A DNA stretch of 64,000 nucleotides, taken from contig CAXXGI010000003.1 in the NCBI GenBank assembly GCA_963674695.2, forward strand, positions 736,001 through 800,000, in the 5' to 3' direction. Under the pieces are notes generated by a model. It saw nothing but the letters and a program-made list of their open reading frames with translations, was not told where the DNA came from and made no database searches. Source of the stretch: a bacterium (GTDB lineage Bacteria; UBA10199; 2-02-FULL-44-16; JAAZCA01). Of the stretch, positions 8,984 to 58,858 are shown piece by piece. The first letter of the stretch is position 1, and the number at the start of each line of letters is the position of its first letter. Position numbers and translations under genes: made by a program.

Positions 8984-9011
8984 TTTTCGGCCAACGCCGC
9001 CGGAAGTTGTG
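8984..9011 (-). promoter_or_regulatory. Sigma-28-like promoter motif M1
   Basis: Minus strand CACAAC-ttccggcggcgttgg-CCGAAAA upstream of ATG 8949. Confidence 0.55.
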
Positions 9012-9087
9012 TGCTTTTTAGGGGGAAACGGCTTTTTTTCACCAGGCGCGATGCGTCAGAAATCTGACGCGCTGTGCGTTGAAAGGA

Positions 9088-9115
9088 CGCAACTTTTCAG
9101 GACATCCTCCGATAA
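9088..9115 (+). promoter_or_regulatory. Sigma-28-like promoter motif M2
   Basis: CGCAAC-ttttcaggacatcct-CCGATAA upstream of ATG 9151. Confidence 0.65.
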
Positions 9116-9150
9116 CGTCTCGAAGGCCCCGCACGGGCAGGAGTTTGCGT

Positions 9151-10218
9151 ATGTCGGAAAGCCAAAACACGATCGCCATCCGCTGCGACCAGATCCGGCA
9201 ATCGGATCAACGCGAGAGCTGTGCCTATTATGTGGAGAGCTGTTTCGAACAGCGCGAACAGATCGCATCGGGCGGCGAGGAGGCACCGGACGGGTATCAA
9301 CTGCTGCAACCGGACGGACGATCGACCTCGCTGAGCAGCTTCAATCGGTGTCTCGATGCCGCGTCATTCATGCCGACCTATTACGGTCCGCTCCCGGAAT
9401 CTGTGCTCGCCACCAGAGAGATAGCGAAAGAAACACCGAAGGCGGATGATGACGTCGTCGAGGAGGAAGTCGTCGAGGAACCTGATGATGTCGAAGAAGA
9501 GGTCATCGATGAGACGGATGATACGATCGAAGAAGCGGATGATGCGATTGATGAGGATGAGGATGCAATCGACGATGACGAAGAGGATGAAGAGGAGACC
9601 GAGTATCCCCACTGCGCCTCCTTCGATGCCGGCAGCGCGGCGTTTACCCGTTGCACGGAAGTCAGCGACATCTGCATGGACGAAGAACCGCCCTATTCCC
9701 TCCCCGTCGGAGAACAGACCTTAACGGTCCACTCCGAAGAGAACTGTCTGAAGTGGGCCCAGCGTATCGCCCGAAGCACGCCGAGCAAGAAGGGCAGGAC
9801 GCGGAAGAAAAAAACGCGGAAGAGACCGGCGCACCACAAATCGACCGAGTTCGCCCTCTGGCGTTCCGACGGCAAGACGCGATTCCATGTTCCGCTCGAC
9901 GAGGTCTCCGGTACGGATGGCACACGACTGGCCCTACGGGTGGGGAAACATCAGCGCGAAACATTTCGCCTGCGCTTCTATAAGGACGGGCAGATCTATG
10001 GCCCTGAGGTCAACTTCAACTACTCGCTCGAATCGACCGGCGGCGGGCGCTACCGCCTGACCTATACGATCTCCAACCGCAACGGCGGCGGCTCGGGCAA
10101 AAAACGCAGCATCACCATATCCGCCGACAAACGCGGCATCCGCGATACGCTGGTCTTTGGCATCAAAACACAGGAAAAGAACGCAACGGTCACATCGATC
10201 CAACTCGTAAAGATGTAG
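9151..10218 (+). CDS. Hypothetical protein with Asp/Glu-rich tract and basic patch
   Basis: CAGGAG RBS; long ORF; acidic tract, Cys pairs, KKGRTRKKKTRKR. Confidence 0.75.
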   Translation: MSESQNTIAIRCDQIRQSDQRESCAYYVESCFEQREQIASGGEEAPDGYQLLQPDGRSTSLSSFNRCLDAASFMPTYYGPLPESVLATREIAKETPKADDDVVEEEVVEEPDDVEEEVIDETDDTIEEADDAIDEDEDAIDDDEEDEEETEYPHCASFDAGSAAFTRCTEVSDICMDEEPPYSLPVGEQTLTVHSEENCLKWAQRIARSTPSKKGRTRKKKTRKRPAHHKSTEFALWRSDGKTRFHVPLDEVSGTDGTRLALRVGKHQRETFRLRFYKDGQIYGPEVNFNYSLESTGGGRYRLTYTISNRNGGGSGKKRSITISADKRGIRDTLVFGIKTQEKNATVTSIQLVKM

Positions 10219-10256
10219 AGAGAACCTGCAGGAAAATAACGATTTCGCCGATTGGT

Positions 10257-10325
10257 GTCATTCCCGCGAAAGCGGGAATCTCGACTTTTCACGTACTTCG
10301 AGATTCCCGCTTTCGCGGGAATGAC
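10257..10325. repeat. REP/REPIN-like palindrome copy 2
   Basis: GTCATTCCCGCGAAAGCGGGAATCTCG...CGAGATTCCCGCTTTCGCGGGAATGAC between convergent genes. Confidence 0.92.
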
Positions 10326-10374
10326 ACCAAAAGTCCTTTCCCCGCCAGACTCTTCGTGCCCCCCCGACCGATCA

Positions 10375-12648: not shown

Positions 12649-12664
12649 GGATCTCCTAAGGACG

Positions 12665-12691
12665 GTGACTCGTGACTCGTAACTCGTGACT
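12665..12691. repeat. Short heptamer (CTCGTRA) tandem upstream of topA
   Basis: gtgactcgtgactcgtaactcgtgact. Confidence 0.8.
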
Positions 12692-12712
12692 GGTAGAGGC
12701 ACAATCGAATCA

Positions 12713-16551: not shown

Positions 16552-16581
16552 AAAAAAACGGCATCGCTTGTGCGATGCCGA
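16552..16581 (-). terminator. Intrinsic terminator, copy A of 30-bp direct repeat
   Basis: Minus strand CGGCATCGC-acaa-GCGATGCCG-TTTTTTT. Confidence 0.85.
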
Positions 16582-18295: not shown

Positions 18296-18325
18296 AAAAA
18301 AACGGCATCGCTTGTGCGATGCCGA
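18296..18325 (-). terminator. Intrinsic terminator after tRNA-Arg, copy B of 30-bp direct repeat
   Basis: Identical to 16552-16581. Confidence 0.85.
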
Positions 18326-19744: not shown

Positions 19745-19754
19745 CGTTTTCCCT

Positions 19755-19803
19755 GTTCACGATTTACGGTTCACCGTTCACGGTTTACCGTTCACCGCCT
19801 CAC
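19755..19803. repeat. Degenerate heptamer tandem (GTTCACS)
   Basis: gttcacgatttacggttcaccgttcacggtttaccgttcaccgcctcac. Confidence 0.75.
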
Positions 19804-20528
19804 CCATCGTCGCGCCACCCCTTCGCACCGATGAGCTGTACAAACCGACAGGCCGTGAGCGAGCGCTGCGTCGTCTGGATCCCATGGCCGGTTCGTTGAA
19901 TCACTTCCAGGTATTGCACATCCTTGTTGCCCACGGGAATGACCAACCGCCCCTTCGGCGCGAGCTGTTCAATGAGATCTTCCGGAACCACCGGCGCACC
20001 GGCCGTAACAACGATCCCGTCGAACGGCGCATCCTCCGGCCAGCCGAGCGTCCCATCGCCGATACGAAGGTTGATGTTGGTATATCCGAGTCGATTGAGC
20101 ACCTTGCGCGCCCGATCGGAGAGGTCGGCCAGGCGCTCGATGGAGAAGACCTCTGTGACCAATCGAGACAAGACCGCCGCCTGATATCCGGAACCGGTCC
20201 CGATCTCCAGGATACGCTCGCTCCCCGTCAGCTCGAGCGCCTCGGTCTGCAGCGCCACCATCAACGGCTGTGAGATCGTCTGCCCCATACCGATGGGAAG
20301 CGGACGATCTTCATAGGCCTGGCTCTCCATCCCCTGCCCCACGAACGCGTGGCGCGGAACATCGCGCATGACCTGCAAAACGCGTTCATCCCGAACGCCA
20401 CCCCGCTCGATCTGGTCTGAGACCATGCGTCGCCGCGCCACTTCATAGCGACAGCGCAGCCGTCCCTGTTTGTTCAAATCCACCGCCGCTCGCTGCTGAC
20501 GCGGAGTTTTCTGTGTGTATCCGTGCAT
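19800..20528 (-). CDS. pcm: Protein-L-isoaspartate O-methyltransferase
   Basis: VPRHAF, GQTISQP, LEIGTGSGYQ, APFDGIVVTA. Confidence 0.95.
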   Translation of the reverse strand: MHGYTQKTPRQQRAAVDLNKQGRLRCRYEVARRRMVSDQIERGGVRDERVLQVMRDVPRHAFVGQGMESQAYEDRPLPIGMGQTISQPLMVALQTEALELTGSERILEIGTGSGYQAAVLSRLVTEVFSIERLADLSDRARKVLNRLGYTNINLRIGDGTLGWPEDAPFDGIVVTAGAPVVPEDLIEQLAPKGRLVIPVGNKDVQYLEVIQRTGHGIQTTQRSLTACRFVQLIGAKGWRDDG

Positions 20529-20533
20529 GGTAC

Positions 20534-20773
20534 CTCGTGACTCGTGACTCGTGACTCGTAACTCGTGACTCGTAACTCGTGACTCGTGACTCGTGACTCG
20601 TGACTCGTGACTCGTGACTCGTGACTCGTGACTCGTAACACGTGACTCGTGACTCGTAACTCGTGACTCGTAACTCGTAACTCGTGACTCGTAACTCGTG
20701 ACTCGTGACTCGTGACTCGTAACTCGTGACTCGTGACTCGTGACTCGATACGAGTAACGAGTTACGAGTGACG
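20534..20773. repeat. Heptamer tandem array (CTCGTGA/CTCGTAA)x30 plus about 3 inverted copies
   Basis: 210 bp (20534-20743) of 7-mers, then cgagtaacgagttacgagtgacg in opposite orientation containing the surE stop. Confidence 0.97.
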
Positions 20774-21577
20774 CCCTTGAAACATCTTCCACGTCTTGAG
20801 TTCTTCGAGCATCTTCGCGTCGGTCATGTTCACGCGCAGGGGAGTCACCGAGATGTGGTCGGAGAAGGCAGCGTTGCAATCGGAATGGGGACGATCCTCG
20901 AACCCCGCTTCGTCCCCCCCGATCCAGTAGTAGATGCGACCCTTCGGATCGACCTTCTCGACGATGATGTCGCCGTAATCGCGTTTGCCCTGATGGGTGA
21001 CCACGGCGCCCTTGATCTGCGAAGCGGACGTGTCGGGGACATTGACGTTGAGGAGTACGCCGCGGGGAAGGCCGCTGGCCAAAATCTGCCGTGCAAGCTT
21101 TGCCGCAAAGCGCGCCGCAACGGGAAAACCAACGCCTCCGCCACCGTTACTCACCAACGAGACCGCCACAGCCGGAATGCCGATGATCGCCCCCTCCATC
21201 GCTACGGAGACCGTGCCCGAATAGTGGACGTCGTCGCCCAGGTTCGGCCCATGGTTGATGCCCGAAACAACGAGGTCCGGATGGCGATCCAGCAGCTCAT
21301 GGACGGCCAGCATCACGCAGTCGGTCGGCGTTCCATCGACGGCATAGACGTCCGTATCCATTTTTTTGACCCGCAGCGGCCGATGCAAGGTGATCGAATG
21401 ACTCGCCGCCGAACGCTGCCCGTCGGGGGCCACCACGACCACATGCCCGACACGGCGCAACGCTCGCTGCAGATGGATGATCCCGTCCGCGCGAACACCA
21501 TCATCATTGGAAACGAGGATCAGCGGACGCGGAGACTTCTTCATCCGAGCTGAATGCGATTTCGTTTTGGGGGACAC
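20762..21577 (-). CDS. surE: 5'/3'-nucleotidase SurE
   Basis: LVSNDDG, GTPTDC, SGINHGPNLG, YSGTV. Confidence 0.96.
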   Translation of the reverse strand: MSPKTKSHSARMKKSPRPLILVSNDDGVRADGIIHLQRALRRVGHVVVVAPDGQRSAASHSITLHRPLRVKKMDTDVYAVDGTPTDCVMLAVHELLDRHPDLVVSGINHGPNLGDDVHYSGTVSVAMEGAIIGIPAVAVSLVSNGGGGVGFPVAARFAAKLARQILASGLPRGVLLNVNVPDTSASQIKGAVVTHQGKRDYGDIIVEKVDPKGRIYYWIGGDEAGFEDRPHSDCNAAFSDHISVTPLRVNMTDAKMLEELKTWKMFQGRHS

Positions 21578-21661: not shown

Positions 21662-21745
21662 CGTGAACCGTAAACCGTAAACGGTGAACAGCAATCCTCG
21701 TCACAGAACAGAATTCTGTTCACCGCTCACGGTTCACCGTTCACG
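21662..21745. repeat. Inverted pair of heptamer tandems between surE and purM
   Basis: cgtgaaccgtaaaccgtaaacggtgaac ... gttcaccgctcacggttcaccgttcacg. Confidence 0.8.
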
Positions 21746-24124: not shown

Positions 24125-24841
24125 ATGAACCATCGCCCCATCGCCATCATCCTGTTCTTTTTTTTCGCCCTCACACAGGGCTGTTCCGGACGCGCGCCTG
24201 ATTCAGCCGAGCAACGCGCACAGATGGTTCGCACGCAGATCACAGCTCGCGGCATCACCGACCAAAAGGTGATCGCTGCATTTCGCATGATGCCGCGCGA
24301 AGAATTCGTGCTGCCGCAATATCGCACGCATGCCTATGATGATAACGAGGTCCCGATCGGCTTCGGACAGACGCTCGACCGCCCCATTGAAAATGCCACG
24401 ATGATGCAGGCGCTCGATATCGATGCGAACGAACGCGTGCTGGAGGTGGGCACGGGCGTGGGACTTTTGGCCTCGCTTCTCGGACAGGTGGCCAAAGAGG
24501 TCTATACGATTGAAATCGATCCCAAGACCGCCGCGAAGGCACGGGAGAACATCACCCGGCTGGGGTTTTCCAATATCCGCGTCAAGACCGGCGACGGCTT
24601 TGTGGGCTGGGCTGAGCATGCGCCCTTCGACGCGATCGTCATGACCTGCAGCCCCAACCGCATTCCCGATCCGATCGCGGCGCAACTCGCCGAAGGCGGG
24701 CGTTTGATCATCCCCCTAGGAAGCGACGAACGTTTTCAGGATTTGATTCTCTTTGAAAAACAGAATGGAAAACTCATCGAACTCTCAAAACTCATTCCCG
24801 CCCAATTCGTACCGATGAAGGGAAAGATCCGTGACTCGTAA
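24125..24841 (+). CDS. Second, lipoprotein-type L-isoaspartyl methyltransferase-like protein
   Basis: Lipobox LTQGC; PREEF, GQTLDRP, LEVGTGVG, APFDAI. Confidence 0.85.
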   Translation: MNHRPIAIILFFFFALTQGCSGRAPDSAEQRAQMVRTQITARGITDQKVIAAFRMMPREEFVLPQYRTHAYDDNEVPIGFGQTLDRPIENATMMQALDIDANERVLEVGTGVGLLASLLGQVAKEVYTIEIDPKTAAKARENITRLGFSNIRVKTGDGFVGWAEHAPFDAIVMTCSPNRIPDPIAAQLAEGGRLIIPLGSDERFQDLILFEKQNGKLIELSKLIPAQFVPMKGKIRDS

Positions 24842-24863
24842 CTCGTGACTCGTGACTCGTGAC
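24830..24863. repeat. Heptamer (CTCGTRA) tandem supplying the stop of the second pcm
   Basis: cgtgactcgtaactcgtgactcgtgactcgtgac. Confidence 0.85.
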
Positions 24864-24898
24864 ACCGAATATCGTGTCGCCGCGAACCTCCATCGACT

Positions 24899-24967
24899 GT
24901 CATTCCCGCGAAGGCGGGAATCTCGAAGTACTCGAAAAATCGAGATTCCCGCCTTCGCGGGAATGAC
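24899..24967. repeat. REP/REPIN-like palindrome copy 3
   Basis: Same 27-bp arms as copy 1, between convergent genes. Confidence 0.92.
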
Positions 24968-25005
24968 AAAAAACGGAATAATCAGCATTCCCCGATAGGC
25001 ACTCG

Positions 25006-26082
25006 TTAGTTCTCCTGACCTTCCCGCTCTTGCTTCAACTTGTAAACAAAGACCAAAATCTCGGCCACCGCCTGATAGAGCTCCTCCGGAATCTCATCGC
25101 CGACATCCAGTTCGATGAGCGTCCAGGCCAGCGGCGGGTTCTGCACGATGGGGATGCGCATCTCCTCGGCCAGCTCGCGAATGGTATTCGCGAAGAGACG
25201 CTGCCCCTTCGCTACCACATGGGGTGCGGCCATATCGGAGTCTTCGTACTTGATCGCCACCGCCAGCTCCACGGGGTTGGTCACCACCGCATCCGCCGTC
25301 GACACCGCCTGCCGCACGTCGCCCATTGCCAGCTCCTGGTGCAACTGTCGACGAGCGCTCTTGATGAGGGGGTCCCCCTCGTCCTGCTTGTACTCGCGCT
25401 TGACCTCATCCTTGCTCATGCGCATCTGCTTCTTATATTGCCAGCGCTGCACGAAGACATCGATGATGGCGATGATGATAAAGATAATGAAGACACGGAT
25501 GAGAAACATCACCATAAGTCTGGCCGCCAGACCAGTGGATTGATCGGGCGTGGCCTGCACCGTGAGGACGATCTCTCGAATGCTGTCGCTGATGACGAAA
25601 TAGGCCATCAGAAAGATGAGAAAGAGCTTGGCGATATTCTTCAGGAGTTCGACGAACGTCGTCATCTTGAACATGTTTTTGATATTCTGAATCGCATTGA
25701 GCCGCTTCATCTGTGGCTTCATCGGCTCACCGGTAAAGATCGGACCGATCTGGATAAACCCCACGCCGATCGCGATGGCGACGATGACCAGCGCAAAGGG
25801 ACCGACGATGCGCACCCAGGTCATGAAGTTCGAGCGAGCCATGAGGGCAAGCTCCTCAAAGGAAAGGTTCCCGCGAGCGACCATATCGAAGTTGGAAACG
25901 AGCAGGCTGCGCAACTGGTCGCCAATGTAGCCGCGCATGAAGACGATGAGACCGAAGGCGGCGATGAGAATAACGATGGTGTTCATGTCGCGAGACTTCG
26001 CGATCTGACCCTTTTTGCGTGCATCCCGCAGCCGTTTTGGCGTTGCTTCTTCAGTCTTTTCCTGGCTGGATGATTCGAACAT
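25006..26082 (-). CDS. Type III export switch protein FlhB/SctU family
   Basis: EKTEEATPKR..GQIAKS, four TM helices, MSKDEVKREYKQDEGDP, VVTNPVE (NPTH site), PxVVAKG, IPEELYQAVA. Confidence 0.92.
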   Translation of the reverse strand: MFESSSQEKTEEATPKRLRDARKKGQIAKSRDMNTIVILIAAFGLIVFMRGYIGDQLRSLLVSNFDMVARGNLSFEELALMARSNFMTWVRIVGPFALVIVAIAIGVGFIQIGPIFTGEPMKPQMKRLNAIQNIKNMFKMTTFVELLKNIAKLFLIFLMAYFVISDSIREIVLTVQATPDQSTGLAARLMVMFLIRVFIIFIIIAIIDVFVQRWQYKKQMRMSKDEVKREYKQDEGDPLIKSARRQLHQELAMGDVRQAVSTADAVVTNPVELAVAIKYEDSDMAAPHVVAKGQRLFANTIRELAEEMRIPIVQNPPLAWTLIELDVGDEIPEELYQAVAEILVFVYKLKQEREGQEN

Positions 26083-26204
26083 CGCTCATTCCCCCTTAAG
26101 GGGCGACCCTAACAGAATCACGGCTCCCCCACAACCGCTTCTCGCTCGCTCCGAGCCTCCTCCGTGATTGATTCTCTCACACAATTGGGCTATCGTGGTC
26201 GTCT

Positions 26205-33023: not shown

Positions 33024-33117
33024 TCTCCGTTTTTTTCTTCGTTATTCGTCATCCGCCATGCGTGCCGTGGAAACCCCTCCGTGTCACGCGTCACGAGTCA
33101 CGAGTCACGGGTTTGTC

Positions 33118-48149: not shown

Positions 48150-48190
48150 CGTTCCTCCTCTGTTGCATCACGCGGGAATGACACGCGCAT

Positions 48191-48227
48191 AAAAAAACCG
48201 CTGATCCGATAGGCATCGAATCAGCGG
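48191..48227 (-). terminator. Intrinsic terminator after glgA-like gene
   Basis: Minus strand CCGCTGAT..loop..ATCAGCGG-TTTTTTT. Confidence 0.75.
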
Positions 48228-48254
48228 CTCTCTTCTCTATTTTTTGCTCTGCCG

Positions 48255-49979
48255 TCAACGAGGAATCTCTATCGCCGAACTGGCCAACAGGCGTTCGTAG
48301 TTCTTCAAATAGTCCCGCGCGCTGCGATCCCAGCTCATGTCCTTGGTCATCATATTGTGCATGATCCGCGCCCGGTGCTGGGGATCCTTCCAGACCCTGA
48401 GGCCCGAAGCGATGGCCGCCAGCAAACCCGCCGGCTTCATCTCCGGCATCAGGAACCCACGCCCTTTTCCCGTGCGGCGACTGAAGGGACTGACGGTATC
48501 GACATGCCCCCCGCGTGCAGAGACGATCGGGATCGCCCCGTACTTCAGCGCATAGAGCACGGTGATCTCGCAGGGCGCCCACCGGGCGGGATTGGCAAAG
48601 AGATCCGCACCAGCGAAGAGCTCGTGCCGCCGCGTCGTATCGAAGGTGATTGCCGGATTCGTTTCGACACCCACCATACCGCGGCCTTTCTTCACCCACT
48701 TGGCCACCATGTCTTTATGGTCCTCATCCGGCGCACCCAGGGTGATGACGGCGATATTGCGTCGAACGATCTCGGGCAGCGCCGCGTCGATCAGGTCGAT
48801 CCCCTTCTGTTCGGTCAGCCTCGCATGGACGGCGAGGATCGGCGTGTCCGCCCCGATCTTCAATCCGTACCGCTCGATGAGCATCCGGCGACACTCGGAT
48901 TTTCCCGCCATATCCGCTGCCGAATAGTTCCGGGCGATGAAGGGATCAGTCGAGGGATCCCACTCGGCACCCAATCCGTTGACGACACCGGAGAGACGTC
49001 CCTTATTGTTGAGTCGCTCATACTCCGCTTCGAGTCCATTACCAAACTGAGCGGTCAGCAACTCCTTGGCATAATGAAGGCTCACGGCCGAGGCATAGTC
49101 CGTATGATGCACGCCCGCCCGCAGATAGTTCGCATTGCCGTGATTATCGAGAAAGCTGGTGACATCGATACGGTCTCCATCCAGATGGAGCTGTTTGATG
49201 ATGTGCGCCGGGTGGATACCCTGGTAGGCCGCGTTGTGAACGGAGAGATACGTCCGCGCGCCCTCGAAGACCCCCCACCCCTTCTTGACGACCGGAACGA
49301 GCCCGCCGGTCCAGTCGTGGGCATGGATGATGTGTGGGTTCATGCCCAAGGCCCCCATCGTGGTGAGCGCAGCGGCCGCCAGGAAGGCGAACCGCTCGCC
49401 GGCGGCATAGTGGTTGTCCCATCCCGTGTCTTGCGGTTTCGGCTTCACCATTCTCCGGAACATCGCACGAATGCCCTTTGCCGAAGGCGGCGTCATGGGC
49501 GTGTCATAAACGCTGTAGATATCCTTGCCCTTGAAATAGCGATCCGCCTCGATGAAGATCGTCCGAACATCGGGGCCGTTTTCAACAGGAAGGATCTTTT
49601 CCCAAAGCTGGGCCTCGACCGTTCCCCCATCGAAACCAAAGGGAACTGTAACGGTCTCGTCCATCTGCCGAAGACCATGTTTTTCAACGTCGATCTCGCC
49701 GCTTTCCGCTTTATAGAGCGGCATGATCACCGTATTCTTCACACCGCCGACACGAGCCAGCGCCGGAGGAAGATTGCACGCCACATCTCCAAGTCCGCCG
49801 CGAAAGACGAAGGGATCCATCTCCGGAACAACATGCACGACCTCGAGCGGATCGGCGCCGTACTCGACGCCCCCACCATCCAGGGCCCCCATGCCACCGC
49901 CGCCATCGAGACCGCCTGGGGTTCCACCAGGACTCAAAAACATCCCTGGACCTGCACCTGTTCCGAGGATTCCACTCAT
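48255..49979 (-). CDS. glgA: Glycogen synthase-like GT5 protein with altered catalytic motifs
   Basis: GGLGDV, HAHDW, HNAAYQG, VNG, RLTEQKG, GGHVDTV; KTGGL is FRGGL and FEPCGL is WAPCEI. Confidence 0.85.
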   Translation of the reverse strand: MSGILGTGAGPGMFLSPGGTPGGLDGGGGMGALDGGGVEYGADPLEVVHVVPEMDPFVFRGGLGDVACNLPPALARVGGVKNTVIMPLYKAESGEIDVEKHGLRQMDETVTVPFGFDGGTVEAQLWEKILPVENGPDVRTIFIEADRYFKGKDIYSVYDTPMTPPSAKGIRAMFRRMVKPKPQDTGWDNHYAAGERFAFLAAAALTTMGALGMNPHIIHAHDWTGGLVPVVKKGWGVFEGARTYLSVHNAAYQGIHPAHIIKQLHLDGDRIDVTSFLDNHGNANYLRAGVHHTDYASAVSLHYAKELLTAQFGNGLEAEYERLNNKGRLSGVVNGLGAEWDPSTDPFIARNYSAADMAGKSECRRMLIERYGLKIGADTPILAVHARLTEQKGIDLIDAALPEIVRRNIAVITLGAPDEDHKDMVAKWVKKGRGMVGVETNPAITFDTTRRHELFAGADLFANPARWAPCEITVLYALKYGAIPIVSARGGHVDTVSPFSRRTGKGRGFLMPEMKPAGLLAAIASGLRVWKDPQHRARIMHNMMTKDMSWDRSARDYLKNYERLLASSAIEIPR

Positions 49980-50099: not shown

Positions 50100-50127
50100 G
50101 TTTCGGCGATCTGCAAAATTAGTTGCG
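50100..50127 (-). promoter_or_regulatory. Sigma-28-like promoter motif M4
   Basis: Minus strand CGCAAC-taattttgcagatcg-CCGAAAC upstream of glgA-like gene. Confidence 0.58.
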
Positions 50128-50164
50128 TGAAAAATTATGCAGATAGACTTGTCTCTTGAATAAT

Positions 50165-50191
50165 CGAGATTCCCGCCTTCGCGGGAATGAC
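50165..50191. repeat. Single arm of REP-like palindrome
   Basis: cgagattcccgccttcgcgggaatgac. Confidence 0.88.
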
Positions 50192-50310
50192 AAAAACCAG
50201 CAAAGCCAGCATTTCACGACAGGTTCTCTGTATCGAGCAAAGACGCCATCCTATTGATAGTATTGCACTATTTTACCCCCCCTTGAACAGCTTATGCCTT
50301 GAAAATACCG

Positions 50311-50338
50311 CGAAACATTTTCCCCATCCTGCCGATAG
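50311..50338 (+). promoter_or_regulatory. Sigma-28-like promoter motif M5
   Basis: CGAAAC-attttccccatcctg-CCGATAG upstream of ATG 50363. Confidence 0.58.
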
Positions 50339-50362: not shown

Positions 50363-52834
50363 ATGGGCGAGAGTGCGCAGACATGCCGTTGGGCGGATTC
50401 GAATCGCGTCGTTTCGATGGTTGAATCGCTGCACGCGGAGCTCGTCTGCGTCAACCGTCTCATCCGCGATCCAAGCGGGATCGAAGCCGACTCGCGCGCG
50501 GAGGAACTCGAAGGCTTGCGTCAGCGTTCCGAAGAATTGCGCGATGCTTTAGACGACCTCGACTTTCACTCCCTCACGACCGCCGACCTTCCCACATCGA
50601 GTTCCGTCTGGTCCGATTCGCTGGGCAGTTACATTCGCCTCATTCAACAGTTCACGACCGATGAACAATCACCGAACGCAATCGATTCCGAGGAGATGCA
50701 GATCCTCTCGAATGCCGCCGCACGCTCATCGGATTTTGGCGTCCGCTTCCTCTTCTTCTCGATGATCGTGGAGGATCGAGACCAGAACCCAGGCACATTC
50801 GTCACGCGTTACGGTGGCAACACAAGTTTCATTGACGACTACGAAGCCAGCGCCATCGGCGGCGTGAACCTCTGCCTCAACCTTCAGGACAAACCGCTCA
50901 TGCTCCCCTGCATCGAACGAGGGATATGGGATCACAACTATGCGATCGATGAAAACGCGCTCGTCTCCGTTGCGCCCTCAGTCTTCCCGACGATCGCGCC
51001 AGAGCTCAAAAAAGCATTTTCAACAAAAGCGATCGAACAGCTTCGAGCCCCCTCCGACCCGGTCGCCATCATAAAAACGATGCGCGAGCAGATCACCAAT
51101 ACGACGATCTTCTCCCTGCTCACCTACACGCTCTTCGAGAAGCTTCGTACGCCCGCGGCGGCCACCGTCTTTCAAACCACGCTCGCAAACATCGTCTCGC
51201 TCGAACCGGCCTTGGATCGCAAGACCAAGCAGATCTACGGCACGATCATCGACAAGGCAGCGCGTTCCTGGTTTCCGAAACAGGCCGAGGACTTCGCCGC
51301 GAAGACGCTCGCGCATCTGACCCATCGCCAGCATATCCCTGCTGGCTCCGTCGTCGGAGCAGATGGAAACACCAACCGCGCCGCATCGACGATGACGAGC
51401 TTTCACCCGGAGATCGCCGCGGATCTGCTCAAGGGGATGCAAAAAGAGATTCGCGCCACACTTCAAGTGATCGAATCGGTGGGCGACTTCATGGCCGCGC
51501 ACGTCGCACAACCACAGCAGTGCATCGAAGGACCACGCTCACCCTGGGAGAAAACGCCGGCCAATCTCGTACTGATCGATGCCTGGCGCACAAGTTTTTC
51601 CGACGACCTGAGCGAGTTGACCGGGCTGTCCGATGCCGACGGATCGATCGAACACTTCCTCGATATGCCAATCGATTTGACTGACGCCGAGGGCTACACT
51701 TTTCTCTCAAAAGTACTCACCAAGACCGAAATCTCCTGGAATGACGCGATGATCACCTACAGCGAGCGCCGCGATACGCTCTCGCGCCTCTTCTTCGACC
51801 GCAACCGCGATGTGGATGAGGCCTTCGCTGCCGCGCGGGCGGATCAGGATGTGCAGTACCTCTCCGGTGGCGCGGGAGCATTGGCGGGACTGCGTGCACA
51901 GACGATGCTCGGCCAGATGGGTTCGGCGATCGTTCCCTTCTTCATCGCCTCGATGGCCGGCGGCTATTGGAACAAGACCTCGCAGGCGATCGAGAGTCAG
52001 GAACAGGATCTGCCCATTCCGGTTCCACGCCCTCGCTCGGGGTTTCCGAAATCAGCCGAGGGCATGGGTGAGACGGGGGCGCTCGAACGCTATCAGATCG
52101 AAGCCCAGGAATGGAACCGGTTCATCCAGGCACTTCCGAATGAGGAGCAATTCGCCTTCCAGGTCGATGAACCGGTCCGAATCGATTGCACGTCGGATGC
52201 CGATCTCTGTTCGTTGGAGACGGGTTTCGCCGGAATGCCGATCGCCGCAGCGGTCGATCGGAAGGCGATCGGGGATGCGCTGCGCGGCATCAAGGATCGC
52301 ATCGGAACGCATCTGCCCAAGGCCCGCCGACTCATCCCGGGACAATGCGAAGTCTTCGGACTCTCGGCTGCCGTCTTCGATCTGGCAGCATGGCGACGAT
52401 TTCAGTTCAGCGCCGAAACCAGCGTGCGCCCGTTCGTGACGGGCATCGATGCGGATGGGGAATTCATTCGACAGACACCCGTTCAGATCGGCGGACATCT
52501 CTGGCCCGCACTCGGCGCACTGGCCGTCGCCGCGGGTTACGGTGTCTGCCGCACCTACGCCATCCGTCATGGAGGAAAGAAGGATCCGCCCAAGGAACCG
52601 AAGACCGCTGATCGCGCTCCCAAACCAGTCGTCGATGCAAAGAAGCTCGTCGAACCGGCTGCCTACACGATAGCGACGCTCTTTGCCGCCTACATGGCCA
52701 AACGCGCCGCCGCCGCTGCGGCGATTGCCATGGCCGACGGGCCGGAACCGTTCGTCGCCGATGCACTGGCCGGCGGATTCCTCATCGGCTCCGTCCTCAC
52801 CTTTCCGTTCTATTATAATGAAGGGATTGAATAG
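50363..52834 (+). CDS. Large hypothetical protein with C-terminal hydrophobic helices
   Basis: AGGAGG RBS, 823 aa, no signal peptide, several Gly/Ala-rich hydrophobic segments. Confidence 0.8.
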   Translation: MGESAQTCRWADSNRVVSMVESLHAELVCVNRLIRDPSGIEADSRAEELEGLRQRSEELRDALDDLDFHSLTTADLPTSSSVWSDSLGSYIRLIQQFTTDEQSPNAIDSEEMQILSNAAARSSDFGVRFLFFSMIVEDRDQNPGTFVTRYGGNTSFIDDYEASAIGGVNLCLNLQDKPLMLPCIERGIWDHNYAIDENALVSVAPSVFPTIAPELKKAFSTKAIEQLRAPSDPVAIIKTMREQITNTTIFSLLTYTLFEKLRTPAAATVFQTTLANIVSLEPALDRKTKQIYGTIIDKAARSWFPKQAEDFAAKTLAHLTHRQHIPAGSVVGADGNTNRAASTMTSFHPEIAADLLKGMQKEIRATLQVIESVGDFMAAHVAQPQQCIEGPRSPWEKTPANLVLIDAWRTSFSDDLSELTGLSDADGSIEHFLDMPIDLTDAEGYTFLSKVLTKTEISWNDAMITYSERRDTLSRLFFDRNRDVDEAFAAARADQDVQYLSGGAGALAGLRAQTMLGQMGSAIVPFFIASMAGGYWNKTSQAIESQEQDLPIPVPRPRSGFPKSAEGMGETGALERYQIEAQEWNRFIQALPNEEQFAFQVDEPVRIDCTSDADLCSLETGFAGMPIAAAVDRKAIGDALRGIKDRIGTHLPKARRLIPGQCEVFGLSAAVFDLAAWRRFQFSAETSVRPFVTGIDADGEFIRQTPVQIGGHLWPALGALAVAAGYGVCRTYAIRHGGKKDPPKEPKTADRAPKPVVDAKKLVEPAAYTIATLFAAYMAKRAAAAAAIAMADGPEPFVADALAGGFLIGSVLTFPFYYNEGIE

Positions 52835-52847
52835 GTTTCTGCACGCT

Positions 52848-52916
52848 GTCATTCCCGCGAAGGCGGGAATCTCGAAGTACGTGAACAATCGAGATTCCCG
52901 CCTTCGCGGGAATGAC
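52848..52916. repeat. REP/REPIN-like palindrome copy 4
   Basis: Same arms as copy 1, between convergent genes. Confidence 0.92.
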
Positions 52917-52952
52917 CCCTTTAAGAATACGACCTTTTGTATTGTACTCCGA

Positions 52953-54818
52953 CTACTCCTCTTTCGCTTCCGGCAGATCGACCTCGTAGAGACTGGTATC
53001 GATGTCGTTGCGATAGACGGCGGGAATGGCATCCTCGTAGAAGAACTTCTCGAGCATGTAGTTGGTGAGAAAGATGGCAGCGACGTTTCCCGCGATGTCG
53101 AAGGCATAGCGCGCGACGTTCTTGCCCTGAAGACCCTTGGCGACCCAGCGACAGCCCTTGTTGACCCAGCTCTTGATGCGACTCGTGCTCTTGTACCCCT
53201 CATGCCAGATGCGTTTGGGACCTGTGGGGACAACGGAAACCTTCGGTTTGAGCACGACGCCGATTTCCTCGGCCTGCGCGCGCAGATCACGCGACATCGC
53301 CTTGAAGCGCTCGCCGAATTTCGACGCATCCGCCGCATTCTCCGGACGGTATTTGATGAAATCCTCTTCGGCGGCCGCCATCATCTCGCCGGCGAGCTGT
53401 CCCAACTCCTGCTGGGCCTGGCGCGCAGATGCCGCGAGCCCCTTCACCTGGGCGCGAGATCCGCCGGCCTCTGCAATCCCTTTCATCTCACGCAGGGTAT
53501 CGCCCGCCTTCTTCGCGGTTGCGGCGACCTCATCCACGCGCGCCACGCCCTGCTCCATCGTCCGGGCCCATTTCAGCGCGCCCTCGCCTCCATCCTGAAG
53601 CATCCGCGGGCGTTCGACCGCATAGAGCCCTTTGAGCTGTCGACCGATGTCGTCGATGCTCGCTTCGAAGGAGAGCCCCAGACCGGCCTTTGATGCCTTC
53701 GTCCCCGAGGCAAAGAAGGTCTCGGGCGGCTGTCGCAAGAGGCGCAGCGCATCGGTCCGCTCGCGCATCCGGTTTGCCATCCAGTCAAACGGCTTGCGCC
53801 CGCGCCCCTCGACGAGAAAGTCGAAGGCGAGTTCGCCCGCATTGCCGCCGATGTGACCGGCGTTGGTAAACATCGCCAGCGTCGGACCCATGTCGCCCGT
53901 GGGACCGTAGAGCCACATCGTGTGACCCAGGCGTTCGAAGAAACTCCCTTCAAGATCATCCCACTTGTCCTGATTGACGAGCATCAGCCCCATGTCGAAC
54001 GCGGTCCACCCGAGAAAGGTCCCCGCATTGATCGCGAAGAACTTGCCCGCGATCTGCGCGCGCGTGGCGGGCATGACGTTGGGCCCCACCCAGTTCTTGC
54101 CGTAGAGCAGACGTCCCCCCATCGATGACGCGCGCTCCTGCAGAAAGGCCGATCGCTCGAGCATCGGCACGAGGCGGTTTTGGAGATTATACTGCACGCC
54201 CGTCTGCGCCAAGGCATAGGCGCCGGTCGTGGCAAAAGCACCGAGATAGAGGTTCTCTTCCGACGCGCCAACTTTTTCCGAAAGCCAGGTATTCCAGGAC
54301 GTCGGATAGCCGTCATTGGGTACACCGAGAGAATCCGACTGGAGCTGTTTGGACAACCCCCACCCGCCATCGAGCGCCAGGCGAAAAGCGAAATGCGCTC
54401 CGACCTCGCCGAAGAATTTGCGCATGCCCAACCGCTGACCAACAGCAAAGCCACGCGGCGGCAGAAAGCGCTGAAAAAAGCGGGACGCCTCAAAATCACC
54501 GGTGTTGCCGAACTTGCCACTGTCGGCGAAGAAAAGCGGTTTCAAGAAAAAGGAATTGCGCGGCCAGATATGATCGCCCCAATCGAAGGAGGGTTCCTGC
54601 CCGTCGACCGCATCGACTTCGAGCACAGAGCCGTCGGCTCCCATCGTCACCGCGGCCGTCTCGCCATCATCGATCTGTTGCTTCAGTTCACGCGTCTTGG
54701 CGCCGTCGAGCAGGAGCGTTCCGTTCGCTCCGACCGAAAGCGTCGGAACCCCCTCCCAAGGATCGGAGGAGACGCGCCCATCCGAAAAATCGCGCTGAGG
54801 AATTCGCGTTTCGCTCAT
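52953..54818 (-). CDS. Hypothetical protein with hydrophobic segments and coiled coil
   Basis: AGGAG RBS, 621 aa, start overlaps GH13 stop; Ala/Gln/Lys-rich heptad region. Confidence 0.8.
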   Translation of the reverse strand: MSETRIPQRDFSDGRVSSDPWEGVPTLSVGANGTLLLDGAKTRELKQQIDDGETAAVTMGADGSVLEVDAVDGQEPSFDWGDHIWPRNSFFLKPLFFADSGKFGNTGDFEASRFFQRFLPPRGFAVGQRLGMRKFFGEVGAHFAFRLALDGGWGLSKQLQSDSLGVPNDGYPTSWNTWLSEKVGASEENLYLGAFATTGAYALAQTGVQYNLQNRLVPMLERSAFLQERASSMGGRLLYGKNWVGPNVMPATRAQIAGKFFAINAGTFLGWTAFDMGLMLVNQDKWDDLEGSFFERLGHTMWLYGPTGDMGPTLAMFTNAGHIGGNAGELAFDFLVEGRGRKPFDWMANRMRERTDALRLLRQPPETFFASGTKASKAGLGLSFEASIDDIGRQLKGLYAVERPRMLQDGGEGALKWARTMEQGVARVDEVAATAKKAGDTLREMKGIAEAGGSRAQVKGLAASARQAQQELGQLAGEMMAAAEEDFIKYRPENAADASKFGERFKAMSRDLRAQAEEIGVVLKPKVSVVPTGPKRIWHEGYKSTSRIKSWVNKGCRWVAKGLQGKNVARYAFDIAGNVAAIFLTNYMLEKFFYEDAIPAVYRNDIDTSLYEVDLPEAKEE

Positions 54819-57295
54819 AAACTCCTCCTTTTCTGCGAAACGCCGAGATAGTCGGCGGGGATGCCGGCTTCATCGCTTCCGCGCCGCTCCAAAATCACGG
54901 TGCGCCACTCGGGCTTGATGAGAACACGTCCGTCGCGAATATCGATGATCTCTTCCTCTTTCCCCGCGTTGCGAAGCCGATACCGTCCGTCGGCCGGGTA
55001 GAGGGCGCCCTTGACCTTCTTGACGCGCTCCGACGTCATGCGCTTGGGATCGGGCGCATGCGGCAGCAGTTCACCCTGTGGAATGGCGGCCGTTCCGTTT
55101 TCAATCTGATAGGTGATCCCCGTGGCGCTGTTCGTCCAGACCTGATCGGGAAACGTGATGCGCCCATTGGCACCGACTTCCATGTAGCGCTCCCAGACCG
55201 GGTCGAAGTAGGTGCCGGGAACGGGCTTGATGTGCCCCTCATCCGTTACCTGGTAATTGATCGTGGTGATCGGATCCTCATAGAACCCCGCCGGGAACTT
55301 GACCTTGAGTTCTGAGAGCACCGAATCGGCATCCTCGTCGATCGCATCCCCTTCAGGGCGGACATGCACATAGAGCATTTCATCGATATCCCGGAAGGAG
55401 CGGTGGATGACGAGCCGATTTTCATCCCCCTCCGTCTCCATCGTGCCGTAGCGCAGCGCAAGCATATTGTTGCGCGTCATCGCATTGAGCCGAACGCCCA
55501 GGCGCTCCATTGGATAGCGTTGAGTCCCATCGGTCGGAATGTCGAGCATCGGACGGTTATAGGGATCTCCGCCGCGACCGAACAGACCGCTGTGCCATCC
55601 GGCGTCGATCTTGCGCTGCAGGTCCGGTGCATAGACGTAGGGCATTCCGGGCAAGATGTACGAGGAGATCACCGCCTGCTCGTGTTCGACGTCGGAGGGC
55701 CATCCCCCGCCGTTCAAGAAGAGCGGCACGTCGTGGTTGCTCGTGATCGGGCAGAGCTGCTGCTGCCAGGAAAGCGGATAGTGTGACAAACGATCGAGAT
55801 GTTTGTGCATTGCCTCGAGCGACCGATCACGACCACCGAAGGACGTGCGCACACTGTGCATAAAGCCGAAATCGAAGAGGTCGACCATCTTCTCGACATC
55901 GGTCTGTCCGCCCAGATAGGCGTGCATCCCCGCGTCGAACATATCCATCGGATGGAGCAGGTCGAACCATTCACCGACGATCGGAGAATATCCGTCCTTG
56001 GCCGCGCGCATACGACCGGCGGAATTGAAGATGACGTTCTCCCAATACTGCGGATAGCGATTGCACTCCTCGGGATTGAGGACATAGAGCAGCGTGTCGA
56101 AGCGCGCACCGCCGGCATGCTCGGCCCAACGATCGGCCGTACGCAGGATGAGATCGTAGGCCTTGGAATTGCCGTAGACATTGAGATCGACAAGCCCCAT
56201 AAGCGATTGTGTTTCGAGCTTTCGCCAGTGGGCGCAGCGGTCGAGCGGAAAAAAGCCCCAGTGTTTGATATAGCGCGTATGATGGAACGCGGCGCGATCA
56301 AAGCCGGAGGCGAACGGGTCGCCGTTGACTTCCGTCTTTTCGAGCCCCAATTTCTCATGCTCTTTCCAATAGTCGAAGACCAGCTGATCCCGAAAAAACA
56401 CCTTTCCGCCATCCATCACATCGCCACACTCTTTGCGATAGGCTTCATACACCTCAGGACAGTCGCGAAAGTTTTCGTCGCCCACCGGTCCACAGCGCTC
56501 GAGCACTTCCGGCGTTGCCGCCTTCTCGATGATATTGAGCGTCTGTTCGAGCCCACAGTTCGTCCCCAATCGTCCCGCATGGTTCATGATGAGATCGACC
56601 TGAACCGTCATCCCCGCCGCACGCAGGGCCGACATCGTCTGTATGAAAAGCTCCTCATCCTTCGCGCGTGAAACACCGGAGCCGTAGTGCGGATCCAGCC
56701 AACCGAAGTTTCGCCCCCAGTATCCGTGCGGACCCGAGGCCCGCACCTGTTCGCCAGCATCGTTATAATAGGTCACATATCCGACCGTATTCTCCCAGAG
56801 GGGACTCATCCAGAGAACGTCGAAGCCCAACCCCTGCAAATAGGGAATGCCCTGCTCGACGCCTTCGAGGTCACCGCCGAAGAAGAGCCCGGGGCTCTCC
56901 TTTGTTTCATCATAGGTCGCCTCCATGATGAACCGGCAGCGCTCGCGTTCTGTTTCGGTCGTGCCGACATCATCACAGGCATAGGTGGGAACATTGTTAT
57001 CGGGGTTGCCATCGCGAAAGCGGTCGATGTTCCCCATCTGCAGGCCATGCGCGGGAAGCCCCATGGCGGCGATGCGATAGAACTCGATGGCAAATTGGTC
57101 GGTGAAGTTTCCAGCGTTATCGATATAACGAGAAGTCTCGGTTCCCTCTGCGAAGTCGATCTCATGGGGTTCCGGAACACCGGGGTGCGTGCCGTCGCGC
57201 ATCCACTTCCAGGGGACGCTCTGTCCGAACTTTTCCTCGACCAGGCGTTGGTAGTACGCGAACATCCTCGGCGTCATCTTGGTAAATGGTGTCAT
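54815..57295 (-). CDS. Large divergent GH13 alpha-amylase-family protein without signal peptide
   Basis: DRFRDG, GGDLEGV..YLQGLG..LWMSP, HGYW, DLIMNH, RFDT, GEW, NHD. Confidence 0.85.
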   Translation of the reverse strand: MTPFTKMTPRMFAYYQRLVEEKFGQSVPWKWMRDGTHPGVPEPHEIDFAEGTETSRYIDNAGNFTDQFAIEFYRIAAMGLPAHGLQMGNIDRFRDGNPDNNVPTYACDDVGTTETERERCRFIMEATYDETKESPGLFFGGDLEGVEQGIPYLQGLGFDVLWMSPLWENTVGYVTYYNDAGEQVRASGPHGYWGRNFGWLDPHYGSGVSRAKDEELFIQTMSALRAAGMTVQVDLIMNHAGRLGTNCGLEQTLNIIEKAATPEVLERCGPVGDENFRDCPEVYEAYRKECGDVMDGGKVFFRDQLVFDYWKEHEKLGLEKTEVNGDPFASGFDRAAFHHTRYIKHWGFFPLDRCAHWRKLETQSLMGLVDLNVYGNSKAYDLILRTADRWAEHAGGARFDTLLYVLNPEECNRYPQYWENVIFNSAGRMRAAKDGYSPIVGEWFDLLHPMDMFDAGMHAYLGGQTDVEKMVDLFDFGFMHSVRTSFGGRDRSLEAMHKHLDRLSHYPLSWQQQLCPITSNHDVPLFLNGGGWPSDVEHEQAVISSYILPGMPYVYAPDLQRKIDAGWHSGLFGRGGDPYNRPMLDIPTDGTQRYPMERLGVRLNAMTRNNMLALRYGTMETEGDENRLVIHRSFRDIDEMLYVHVRPEGDAIDEDADSVLSELKVKFPAGFYEDPITTINYQVTDEGHIKPVPGTYFDPVWERYMEVGANGRITFPDQVWTNSATGITYQIENGTAAIPQGELLPHAPDPKRMTSERVKKVKGALYPADGRYRLRNAGKEEEIIDIRDGRVLIKPEWRTVILERRGSDEAGIPADYLGVSQKRRSL

Positions 57296-57309
57296 AAGTC
57301 CCCTTATCC

Positions 57310-58308
57310 CTATTGACGCATGCTATTCGCCGCTTCGGCCTCTCGGCGTACCACGGCATCGGAATCCTTGCGCAACTGCTCGATCACGGGATCGGCACGC
57401 TCGGCAAAGAGCTTGATCAACATCCAGGCAAACGTCTTTTCCTGGCTATCGCTGCTTGTCACCATTCCGTTGCGTATCAGATACGCGATCGCCTTTGGAC
57501 CGATCTTGATCAGCGCCTCGACGATGGCGGTCTTCAACATGCGCGAACGCGGGAAACGATCGACGTACGCCTCCCCCTCCTCACTCAGGGCCAGTTTGAT
57601 CAGCTGCGGCACCAGCGCTGAGGCCTTTTGACCGTATTCGCCCGCGGCCCAGACGGTGGTAAAGAGCACCCGCGAGCTCTTGAGAAAGAGATGTTGGTGC
57701 AGCACCGGCAGCACCTCTTCGGGAAGCGCGCGATGCGCGCCAAGTGTGGAGAGCGCGGCAACCTGAAGAGGAAAATCCTCCGGGTGTTTATCCTTCTGCC
57801 ACATCAGGATCGGTTCATCCTCGAGGACCTCGAGCATCCCCTCGGCGATCTCATCGCGCAGTTCCACGTTGGCCACCGGCGTATAGCGCAGTTCCCAGAT
57901 CGCCGCCTCGCGCCGTGCGTCATTCTTGAACCAGCCGCTCTGCGCGGCATCGATGAGCCAGCGCACGCGATCGTGCTGAACCAGCTCGCCATTTTTGCCC
58001 GCCACAAGGCACAAAAAAGACCGGGGGATACCGGCCGTGCTCGCATCATCAAATTCCTCGGGGGTCACCTGCGCCGTTCGCGTAAGGCTCGGATCATCGC
58101 TCAAGGTAAAATTGAGCGCATTCTGGAGCGGGGCACAGAATTCGGAGAGCCCCAGTTTCGCGCACTCGGTCTGGCCGAAGCCTTCCGGGCCTTCCGCCGC
58201 CGCCTGCCGTACCGCTTGAGCCAACGGTGCATTCCACGCGATGGACATCATCGCCTCCTTTGTCATTCCAGCGTCCATCTCCTCCCGCAAGATGCGCTCA
58301 TCGTTCAA
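57310..58308 (-). CDS. HEAT/PBS-repeat protein
   Basis: AALSTLG, WAAGEYG..ASALVPQL, EALIKIGPKAI, DSDAVVRREA. Confidence 0.7.
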   Translation of the reverse strand: MNDERILREEMDAGMTKEAMMSIAWNAPLAQAVRQAAAEGPEGFGQTECAKLGLSEFCAPLQNALNFTLSDDPSLTRTAQVTPEEFDDASTAGIPRSFLCLVAGKNGELVQHDRVRWLIDAAQSGWFKNDARREAAIWELRYTPVANVELRDEIAEGMLEVLEDEPILMWQKDKHPEDFPLQVAALSTLGAHRALPEEVLPVLHQHLFLKSSRVLFTTVWAAGEYGQKASALVPQLIKLALSEEGEAYVDRFPRSRMLKTAIVEALIKIGPKAIAYLIRNGMVTSSDSQEKTFAWMLIKLFAERADPVIEQLRKDSDAVVRREAEAANSMRQ

Positions 58309-58810
58309 GCTTCTTGCGACACATGAACGTGCAATTCAAATCGTCGTTGAACCAGATCTCGATATCGATCCCGGTCATCGCCTTGATCGCTGAGGCCACA
58401 ACCACCAGATCCTTGCGCAGCTCCGGACGGTCGGTGATATCAGCACTAAAAGATCCGCAGCCGTTGTCCAGCTCGCGGATCACATTCCCCTTCGCATCGT
58501 TGAGTTCGATCCAATAGAAGGTCTTGCTCTGACCTAACCGGCGAAAATGGTAGGAGAAGTGCACCGTGTGATCGCCATCGCGCACGTCAAACGCATACGA
58601 CTCCTGTGCCGAATTTCCCGTTTGATAGGCGGACTTGCGCATGGAGGGCTCTGCACAGCTCTTGACCATCTCCACAGAGTAGGCATCCATGTCGAATGCC
58701 GTTTCGGGTTGGGCGCAGGTCTTCTTAAAATAGGACCGCAGCTGACTGAGTATTTTTTCTTCGGTGCGATAGGACGCGCAGTAGCGTTCACTTGCATTGA
58801 AATCCGGCAT
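58298..58810 (-). CDS. Hypothetical protein, first gene of four-gene operon
   Basis: AAGGAGG RBS before ATG 58810; stop overlaps next start. Confidence 0.7.
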   Translation of the reverse strand: MPDFNASERYCASYRTEEKILSQLRSYFKKTCAQPETAFDMDAYSVEMVKSCAEPSMRKSAYQTGNSAQESYAFDVRDGDHTVHFSYHFRRLGQSKTFYWIELNDAKGNVIRELDNGCGSFSADITDRPELRKDLVVVASAIKAMTGIDIEIWFNDDLNCTFMCRKKLER

Positions 58811-58830
58811 GACCCCCTCCTTCCATCCCC

Positions 58831-58858
58831 TTATCGCGGTTTCAGCGAAAAAGTTGCG
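58831..58858 (-). promoter_or_regulatory. Sigma-28-like promoter motif M6
   Basis: Minus strand CGCAAC-tttttcgctgaaacc-GCGATAA upstream of ATG 58810. Confidence 0.65.

Follow-up and report, generated by a model that had tools for sequence, protein, structure and literature searches.

A bipartite promoter-like motif with an invariant 15-nt spacer ahead of six transcription units in an uncultivated bacterial lineage

The window analysed here is a stretch of 64,000 nucleotides (nt) of contig CAXXGI010000003.1 (GenBank assembly GCA_963674695.2, positions 736,001 to 800,000 of the forward strand), from a bacterium of the UBA10199 lineage. It contains six copies of a bipartite motif, typified by CGCAAC-N15-CCGATAA, each standing ahead of a transcription unit. 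The genes that follow encode a protein with calcium-binding repeats, a number of orphans and enzymes of alpha-glucan metabolism, and the two halves of the motif recall the promoters of two different families of alternative sigma factors, sigma-28 (FliA/WhiG) and the extracytoplasmic function (ECF) group. All positions below are counted from the first letter of the window.

The contig is 1,091,657 bp long, and the GC content of the window is 0.56–0.61. Families were assigned by Pfam and NCBIfam scans of 56 open reading frames (ORFs), and these profile searches recognize a housekeeping set comprising purA, argF, hslUV, xerC, topA, dprA and the gene of the HU protein, together with surE-pcm-nlpD, purMN, folD and gcvTHP. 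An Rfam scan of the window returned tRNA only. The HU gene has a canonical promoter, TTGACA-N17-TAATTT, which was read directly from the sequence. The main sigma factor is thus conventional and the six-site motif belongs to something else, and the housekeeping sigma is excluded as its reader on this ground.

A large alpha-glucan cluster occupies about 38 to 64 kb of the window. Its members are a maltodextrin-type ATP-binding cassette transporter, an alpha-glucan phosphorylase, MalQ, two GH13 enzymes, a GlgA-family synthase and TreY, and three of the six sites are located in or beside it. TreY, the malto-oligosyltrehalose synthase (61386–64000, minus strand; 587.7 bits, aligned from model position 79), has a frame that is open to the window end, so that its start and promoter are beyond the window, where one more motif site could be present.

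The motif and its statistics

The pattern C[AG][AC]AAC-N16-CGA[AT]A, scanned on both strands, matches at exactly six places: 8985–9011 (minus), 9088–9114 (plus), 29272–29298 (plus), 50101–50127 (minus), 50311–50337 (plus) and 58832–58858 (minus). These are the places given by the original prediction, which had claimed six bipartite sites with an invariant 15-nt spacer, most with a T-run after the first box, situated 7–120 nt upstream of a gene and not before housekeeping genes. All of this is borne out in the window: the spacer is 15 nt in 6/6 sites, the next five bases after the first box contain 2, 4, 5, 3, 4 and 5 T, respectively, the distances to the start codon lie in the range given at all six, and no housekeeping gene of the window is preceded by a copy. 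Against the six matches observed, 100 dinucleotide-preserving shuffles contain 0.32 on average (standard deviation 0.58, largest 2) and none of them reaches six, in a test that is post hoc, as the pattern was derived from the very six sites. All six are situated in intergenic DNA, although the non-coding share of the window is 7.9% in the gene map of this analysis, and the coding DNA holds none.

The motif was also assessed by a leave-one-out procedure, in which a weight matrix built from five sites was used to score the sixth among the ~128,000 positions of the window. Four of the held-out sites are outscored by 5–6 positions, five of these being the training sites themselves, while for the site at 50100 nine positions score higher. 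A motif-blind seed scan was run over 23 upstream regions, defined as those heading transcription units, six of which carry the motif. Seeds taken from the site at 29272 score 72 and 71, compared with top scores of 67–70 in 20 shuffled sets, and the sole higher seed (73) comes from a tandem repeat; seeds from the sites at 50311, 58831 and 9088 score 70. The top exact 4-mer dyad is CAAC-N15-CCGA, found in 4 of the 23 upstream regions. As control DNA, 333,588 bp of 23 unrelated loci with a GC content of 0.40–0.70 were scanned (the surroundings of distant GlgA relatives, with at most 34% identity, from unrelated phyla), and no match to the pattern was found. A literature search yielded no description of the motif, which is no proof that none exists.

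The same sites might instead be bound by a transcription regulator, be read by another class of sigma factor whose sites resemble those of sigma-28 or ECF, or form a chance cluster. This would be in line with the small number of sites and with the post hoc nature of the pattern. Two further results weigh against a single promoter class: the count of the exact 4-mer dyad is not significant on its own, as 21 of 100 shuffles also reach four, and the site at 8984 is the weakest member, with a leave-one-out score of 5.2 and 40 positions above it. Orientation is a weak test: five of the six sites are shared among three divergent intergenic regions, in which a gene would be faced whichever way the motif pointed, so that it is uninformative for them. 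Such an origin is, however, difficult to reconcile with the failure of all 100 shuffles to reach six, with the restriction of the sites to the small non-coding share and with their absence from the control DNA. Moreover, the motif lacks internal symmetry, its halves being repeated neither directly nor in inverted orientation; with the invariant spacer, this is more easily explained by a sigma factor than by a regulator that binds as a dimer. The start codons are also close by, at promoter-like distances. A regulator or a chance cluster is improbable on these grounds, and the six sites very probably constitute a single class of promoters belonging to one alternative sigma factor.

The possibility that the motif is part of a mobile repeat was rejected, since the flanks of the six sites are unrelated to one another and the sites are absent among the repeat families listed (20 of 35 direct and 25 of 74 inverted pairs). 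A weak seventh candidate, CACAAC-N15-CCGAGCC, is located at 26130–26157 (plus strand), 47 nt before a kinase gene, and does not match the -10 half at [AT]A. It may be a chance match, given that [CA]AAC-N16-CGA matches 44 times in the window.

Repetitive DNA of other kinds is present in the window. Near-perfect palindromic elements of ~70–80 nt are found at 6109–6196, 10252–10330, 24897–24970, 50152–50210 and 52837–52927. They are intergenic, mostly after gene ends, and each consists of two inverted copies of a ~33-nt hairpin; a half copy of the element is located ~25 nt upstream of the site at 50100. Tandem arrays of 7-nt units are placed at gene boundaries (20480–20801, 12664–12697, 24830–24863, 33078–33112, 19753–19796 and 21716–21745), and one of 9-nt units is located at 4102–4143. 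The first pcm ORF (19800–20879) has a long N-terminal extension that contains the largest array, ~320 nt in length, and that may therefore be non-coding. A 30-nt A-run plus hairpin occurs in two 100% identical copies 1.7 kb apart (16552–16581 and 18296–18325), one adjoining tRNA-Arg(CCT) and the second within a coding region or at its end.

The sites and the genes behind them

Five of the six sites have their second box 7–35 nt ahead of the start codon. A purine-rich ribosome-binding stretch is likewise present between box and ATG at five sites, the exception being that at 29272, which has none.

Site 1, CACAAC-N15-CCGAAAA (8984–9011, minus strand), is separated by 34 nt from the ATG at 8949. 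The gene (7339–8949, minus) encodes a 536-residue acidic protein with TSP3 calcium-binding repeats (Pfam PF18884) and a hydrophobic segment at either end, a leader at the N-terminus and an anchor at the C-terminus, and shows a partial match to the CglD model, with 120 bits against a cut-off of 400. Its C-terminus is made of a Gly-rich stretch, a Cys, a hydrophobic helix and an Arg-rich tail, for which no NCBIfam model was reported, and which we take to resemble the C-terminal sorting signals of the MYXO-CTERM kind.

Site 2, CGCAAC-N15-CCGATAA (9088–9115, plus strand), is 35 nt from the ATG at 9151, ahead of which there is an AGGAG stretch. Its leave-one-out score is 15.3, with only the five training sites higher. 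The gene (9151–10218, plus) codes for a 355-residue orphan with an acidic middle and a basic patch, and has no family at E ≤ 0.001.

Site 3, CGCAAC-N15-TCGATAA (29272–29299, plus strand), is the best-scoring of the six and stands 7 nt before the ATG at 29307. Counted from the box, this ATG starts at the 8th base, in agreement with a leaderless start. The structural description in PMC12784957 places the -10 element of the sigma-28 open complex as (-15)GCCGATAA(-8). If the A of this ATG is taken as +1, CGATAA falls at -13 to -8, that is, in the sigma-28 geometry, which implies a leaderless mRNA; the transcript of this unit is therefore probably leaderless, as judged from the sequence. The product (29307–30404, plus) is a 365-residue orphan with no Pfam or NCBIfam match, and among 5.77 billion cluster representatives it matches only itself in a word-seeded search. 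Its coding score is 0.284 compared with 0.157 for the ORF on the opposite strand, and a structure model made from the single sequence is unusable (predicted local distance difference test, pLDDT, 37.7).

Site 4, CGCAAC-N15-CCGAAAC (50100–50127, minus strand), is the most distant from its gene, with 120 nt to the glgA-like ATG at 49979. The product (48255–49979, minus) is a glycogen/starch synthase of the GlgA family with a glycine-rich N-terminal extension, and matches TIGR02095 at 337.9 bits, above the cut-off of 328.45. Directly 3' of its stop codon, at 48172–48245 on the minus strand, a 20-bp hairpin (-30 kcal/mol, z -5.1) with U7 behind it forms a strong intrinsic terminator, within what would otherwise appear as a long row of glucan genes on the same strand; glgA is therefore probably transcribed alone. 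A structured leader of this gene was considered and dismissed, as its single 10-bp hairpin is unremarkable (z -1.9).

Site 5, CGAAAC-N15-CCGATAG (50311–50338, plus strand), is placed 24 nt from the ATG at 50363, with AGGAGG between them. The 823-residue orphan encoded here (50363–52834, plus) contains hydrophobic C-terminal segments and has no family match. It finds only itself in the word-seeded search and has seven distant relatives among 1.84 billion representatives, the best with 32% identity. A model built on the seven sequences (mean pLDDT 53) shows no fold match at E ≤ 0.001 among the 500 matches listed, and an Atlas search with this protein returned no match.

Site 6, CGCAAC-N15-GCGATAA (58831–58858, minus strand), lies 20 nt from the ATG at 58810, with GGAAGGAGG between. 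The site would fall within a longer ORF that starts with TTG and extends to 58969, which makes 58810 the likelier start. The unit (52953–58810, minus) is formed by overlapping or abutting ORFs for a 170-residue orphan, a HEAT-repeat protein, an 826-residue GH13 enzyme and a 621-residue orphan. The GH13 enzyme matches cyclodextrin glucanotransferase and alpha-amylase chains over residues 125–250 only.

With Pfam and NCBIfam at relaxed thresholds, none of the orphan targets gave a functional match. Their codon statistics of 0.28–0.44 bits per codon, compared with 0.12–0.55 in 30 of 31 known genes (the remaining one, read out of frame, being left aside), are native: the orphans are real genes rather than recently imported ones. 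In an all-against-all BLASTP comparison of 12 window proteins the orphans showed no paralogy, and the sole match was that between the two GH13 enzymes.

The targets had been described as accessory, exported proteins, and this is overstated. Two of the six units contain alpha-glucan enzymes, the GlgA-family synthase, which scores above its model cut-off, and the GH13 enzyme, both inside the alpha-glucan cluster. The presence of sites at the glucan cluster and of two glucan-enzyme units is taken to suggest a life-phase or stress/storage programme in preference to an effector set.

Two further features are found in this part of the window. A 393-residue protein of beta-barrel-like type, which has a leader peptide and ends in Phe, is encoded at 59166–60347 (plus strand) and faces site 6 across the divergent region; its coding score of 0.41, compared with -0.06 for the longer ORF on the opposite strand, marks it as a real gene. 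Two truncated genes for four-helix-bundle proteins (60474–60677, minus, and 61004–61216, plus; TIGR02436, model positions ~36–104 of 109) are arranged as an inverted pair, their inverted repeat being 118 nt long and 78% complementary; the 1-kb stretch around them has few genes and is rich in CCGATAA-like words.

Comparison with sigma-28 and ECF promoters

The sites were aligned to the E. coli sigma-28 consensus TAAAGTTT-n11-GCCGATAA (PMC2859248, Table 1). In the -10 half, 40 of 48 positions match GCCGATAA, and C, G, A and the second A are invariant in all six sites. The n11 spacing between the octamers is identical to that of sigma-28 in 6/6 sites. The central CGA is the most conserved feature of the sigma-28 family, while the -35 element varies between clades (PMC12871210, PMC3627812): it is T(A/C)AA for WhiG2 and CTCA for WhiG1 (PMC12871210), and TTAAG for the sigma-28 of Bdellovibrio (PMC3627812). 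It is the -10 half of the motif that speaks for sigma-28, exceeding the usual ECF element in length and agreeing base for base.

The -35 half agrees less well, with 27 of 48 positions matching TAAAGTTT, the agreeing parts being AA and the T-run that follows. The sigma-28 likeness claimed by the original prediction, which had found identical spacing, therefore stands for the -10 half and the spacing and does not extend to the -35 core, which is off at three of five positions in nearly every site. Several observations weigh against a sigma-28 family reader. Compared with TAAAG, core positions 1, 2 and 5 agree in 0, 1 and 0 of the six sites, and single changes at those three positions reduce the activity of an E. 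coli sigma-28 promoter 4- to 10-fold (PMC2859248), so an enterobacterial-type FliA is not expected to use these sites well. AAC is contained in none of the -35 variants quoted for the family, T(A/C)AA, CTCA, TTAAG and TAAAG. The canonical sigma-28 arrangement TAAA-N15-GCCGA has no site in the window, and none of the six units has a flagellar or chemotaxis gene downstream. The 56 ORFs scanned include no sigma factor gene, and thus no fliA or whiG, for which a search had been proposed. Finally, AAC with a T-tract and a CG-type -10 element at a spacer of 14–17 bp is the signature of the ECF promoters.

ECF (group 4) sigma factors are the principal alternative. Their promoters are described as having AAC in the -35 element with a proximal T-tract (tgaAACntttt, in a subset of ECFs), spacers of 14–17 bp and -10 elements CGTA, CGTC, CGAC and CGwC (PMC5758882), and the site of the Caulobacter ECF sigma-F is GTAACC-N16-CGAA (PMC3511200). 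In the window AAC is invariant in 6/6 sites, at least three of the next five bases are T in 5/6, and CG follows 16 nt after AAC in 6/6, so the likeness to sigma-W, X, M and V of B. subtilis and to Caulobacter sigma-F extends to AAC, the adjoining T-tract, the CG-initiated -10 element and a spacer of ~16. The third base of the -10 element is A, as in the sigma-X autoregulatory site and that of Caulobacter sigma-F. The -35 half, with AAC and then a T-run, favours ECF. Domain 4 of such a factor would read AAC, the T-tract would bend the spacer and CGA would serve as a short -10 element, in a regulon that would be unusually large or locally clustered, for example that of a general-stress or envelope sigma. 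The -10 element found here is longer than in the ECF promoters, however, being CGA[AT]AA as in sigma-28, and its conservation extends through [AT]-A-(A) and back through (G)C, beyond the 3–4 nt of an ECF element. Among the window ORFs scanned there is also no ECF gene with an upstream motif. ECF genes are often numerous in genomes of this general kind, which counts in favour of this explanation, and six sites of one ECF factor in 64 kb would be dense in comparison with usual regulon sizes, which counts against it.

A sigma-28-family factor with a shifted -35 specificity is tentatively favoured as the reader of the sites. This assignment is plausible but not established, and an ECF factor is nearly as likely.

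Class 3 flagellar promoters of sigma-28 in E. coli and Pseudomonas are similar to the sites in the -10 octamer, CGA, n11 and the T-run after the -35 element, the difference being a -35 core of GCAAC here instead of TAAAG and the lack of motility genes downstream (PMC2859248, PMC12784957). The closest parallel in function is FliA of Bdellovibrio bacteriovorus, for which TTAAG-N16-CCGATA was reported in 92 of 140 attack-phase promoters mapped (PMC3627812). There, too, a sigma-28-type -10 element precedes many non-flagellar genes, including cell-surface and uncharacterised ones, and FliA has a global role in a life phase; relatives of the FlhB/SctU protein of the window also bear a deltaproteobacterial label. 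The -35 element differs, and the density of the predicted sites in the window (6 per 64 kb) is above that of 92 promoters per genome. WhiG1 and WhiG2 of Actinomycetota likewise have non-motility roles and keep GCCGA while their -35 elements differ by clade (PMC12871210), but they belong to a different phylum and neither of the two -35 elements contains AAC. In Chlamydia trachomatis sigma-28 is kept without flagella, in an organism with type III secretion, and acts at a late stage of the life cycle; it bound only the hctB and tsp promoters, and thus has no broad regulon there (PMC12282069). Non-flagellar use of sigma-28 has hence already been described (PMC12871210, PMC3627812, PMC12282069), and the repurposing of such a factor put forward for this locus is not new as an idea.

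The original prediction went further and suggested that a FliA/WhiG-like sigma co-expresses type III substrates or effectors, pointing to a SctU/FlhB gene in the window. Such a gene is indeed present (25006–26082, minus strand), and its assignment is ambiguous. Against the SctU and FlhB models the protein reaches 351.8 and 345.7 bits, respectively, in each case slightly below the cut-off. Its best solved matches are full-length flagellar FlhB chains, with 200 bits compared with 110 for SpaS. Its close relatives, with 60–77% identity, come from metagenome-assembled genomes labelled Deltaproteobacteria, Proteobacteria or bacterium, and are named EscU/YscU/HrcU by NCBI's pipeline and FlhB-like by JGI names. 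The FlhB matches and the deltaproteobacterial labels count in favour of a sigma-28 reader. The gene, the single export-gate gene seen in the window, is isolated between a methyltransferase gene and the kinase gene, with no other flagellar or injectisome gene beside it. It adjoins no target, and its lack of a motif copy also speaks against a sigma-28-type regulon; the weak look-alike at 26130–26157 faces the kinase gene. N-P-x-H is found nowhere in the protein, and N-P-V-E occurs near residue 268, which we take to be about the position of the NPTH self-cleavage motif of the FlhB/SctU family.

For secretion by a type III system it may be said that five of nine products have no N-terminal signal peptide (judged by eye) and no detectable family, that two targets are strict or near-strict orphans, that the relatives of the FlhB/SctU protein include those with injectisome names, and that Chlamydia retains sigma-28 in the absence of flagella (PMC12282069). 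This suggestion is nevertheless unsupported in the window and unlikely to be correct. Among the targets are one protein with a leader peptide and two glucan enzymes of cytoplasmic type; the orphans lack a functional match, and the FlhB/SctU protein is equally FlhB-like, isolated and without the motif. The two promoters bound by chlamydial sigma-28 are not described as those of effector genes in that account (PMC12282069). The sole effector-like lead, the 621-residue orphan against an AvrPphD-named cluster with an Atlas feature score of 0.78, was discarded as below noise, since it falls below the level of a third of shuffled proteins. A literature search on the candidate phylum and type III secretion found nothing relevant.

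Proposed mechanism and its meaning

The motif is real and statistically well supported, and it most likely represents the local part of an alternative-sigma regulon. In the proposed mechanism, RNA polymerase with a single alternative sigma factor of the sigma-70 superfamily would read all six sites, domain 4 recognizing cGCAAC and the T-run, and domain 2 recognizing (G)CCGA[AT]A beyond a spacer of 15 nt. The predicted start of transcription is ~7 nt past the second box, giving predicted leaders of ~13–28 nt at four units, a leaderless transcript at 29307 and a leader of 113 nt at glgA. Within the window, the sigma factor would thereby co-express lineage-specific orphans, a calcium-binding surface protein and storage-glucan enzymes, in a programme that would be of the life-phase or stress type rather than flagellar or effector-related.

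If six sites per 64 kb held over the contig, which is at least 1.09 Mb long, the promoters would be of the order of a hundred. A more far-reaching and rather doubtful extension is a genome-wide regulon under a sigma factor that combines a sigma-28-type -10 with an ECF-type -35 specificity, being either a sigma-28 member with a re-specified domain 4 or an ECF factor that has converged on the sigma-28 -10 element. Such a factor might act as a master switch for lineage-specific orphans and storage-glucan metabolism in a Deltaproteobacteria-labelled lineage with an FlhB/SctU protein devoid of the usual cleavage motif, and type III substrates might be found among the orphans.

The use of alternative sigma factors, sigma-28 included, in non-flagellar programmes is already established as a general idea, and the gain from this locus is thus incremental unless the regulon proves to be very large or linked to secretion. 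Should the proposed reading be correct, a 28-nt pattern would pick out a co-regulated set of largely relative-less proteins in an uncultivated lineage and would tie these orphans to glycogen-type storage metabolism. It would also represent a natural promoter class in which a sigma-28 -10 element is joined to an ECF-like -35 element, and would bear on the evolution of sigma specificity and on the building of orthogonal sigma-promoter pairs.

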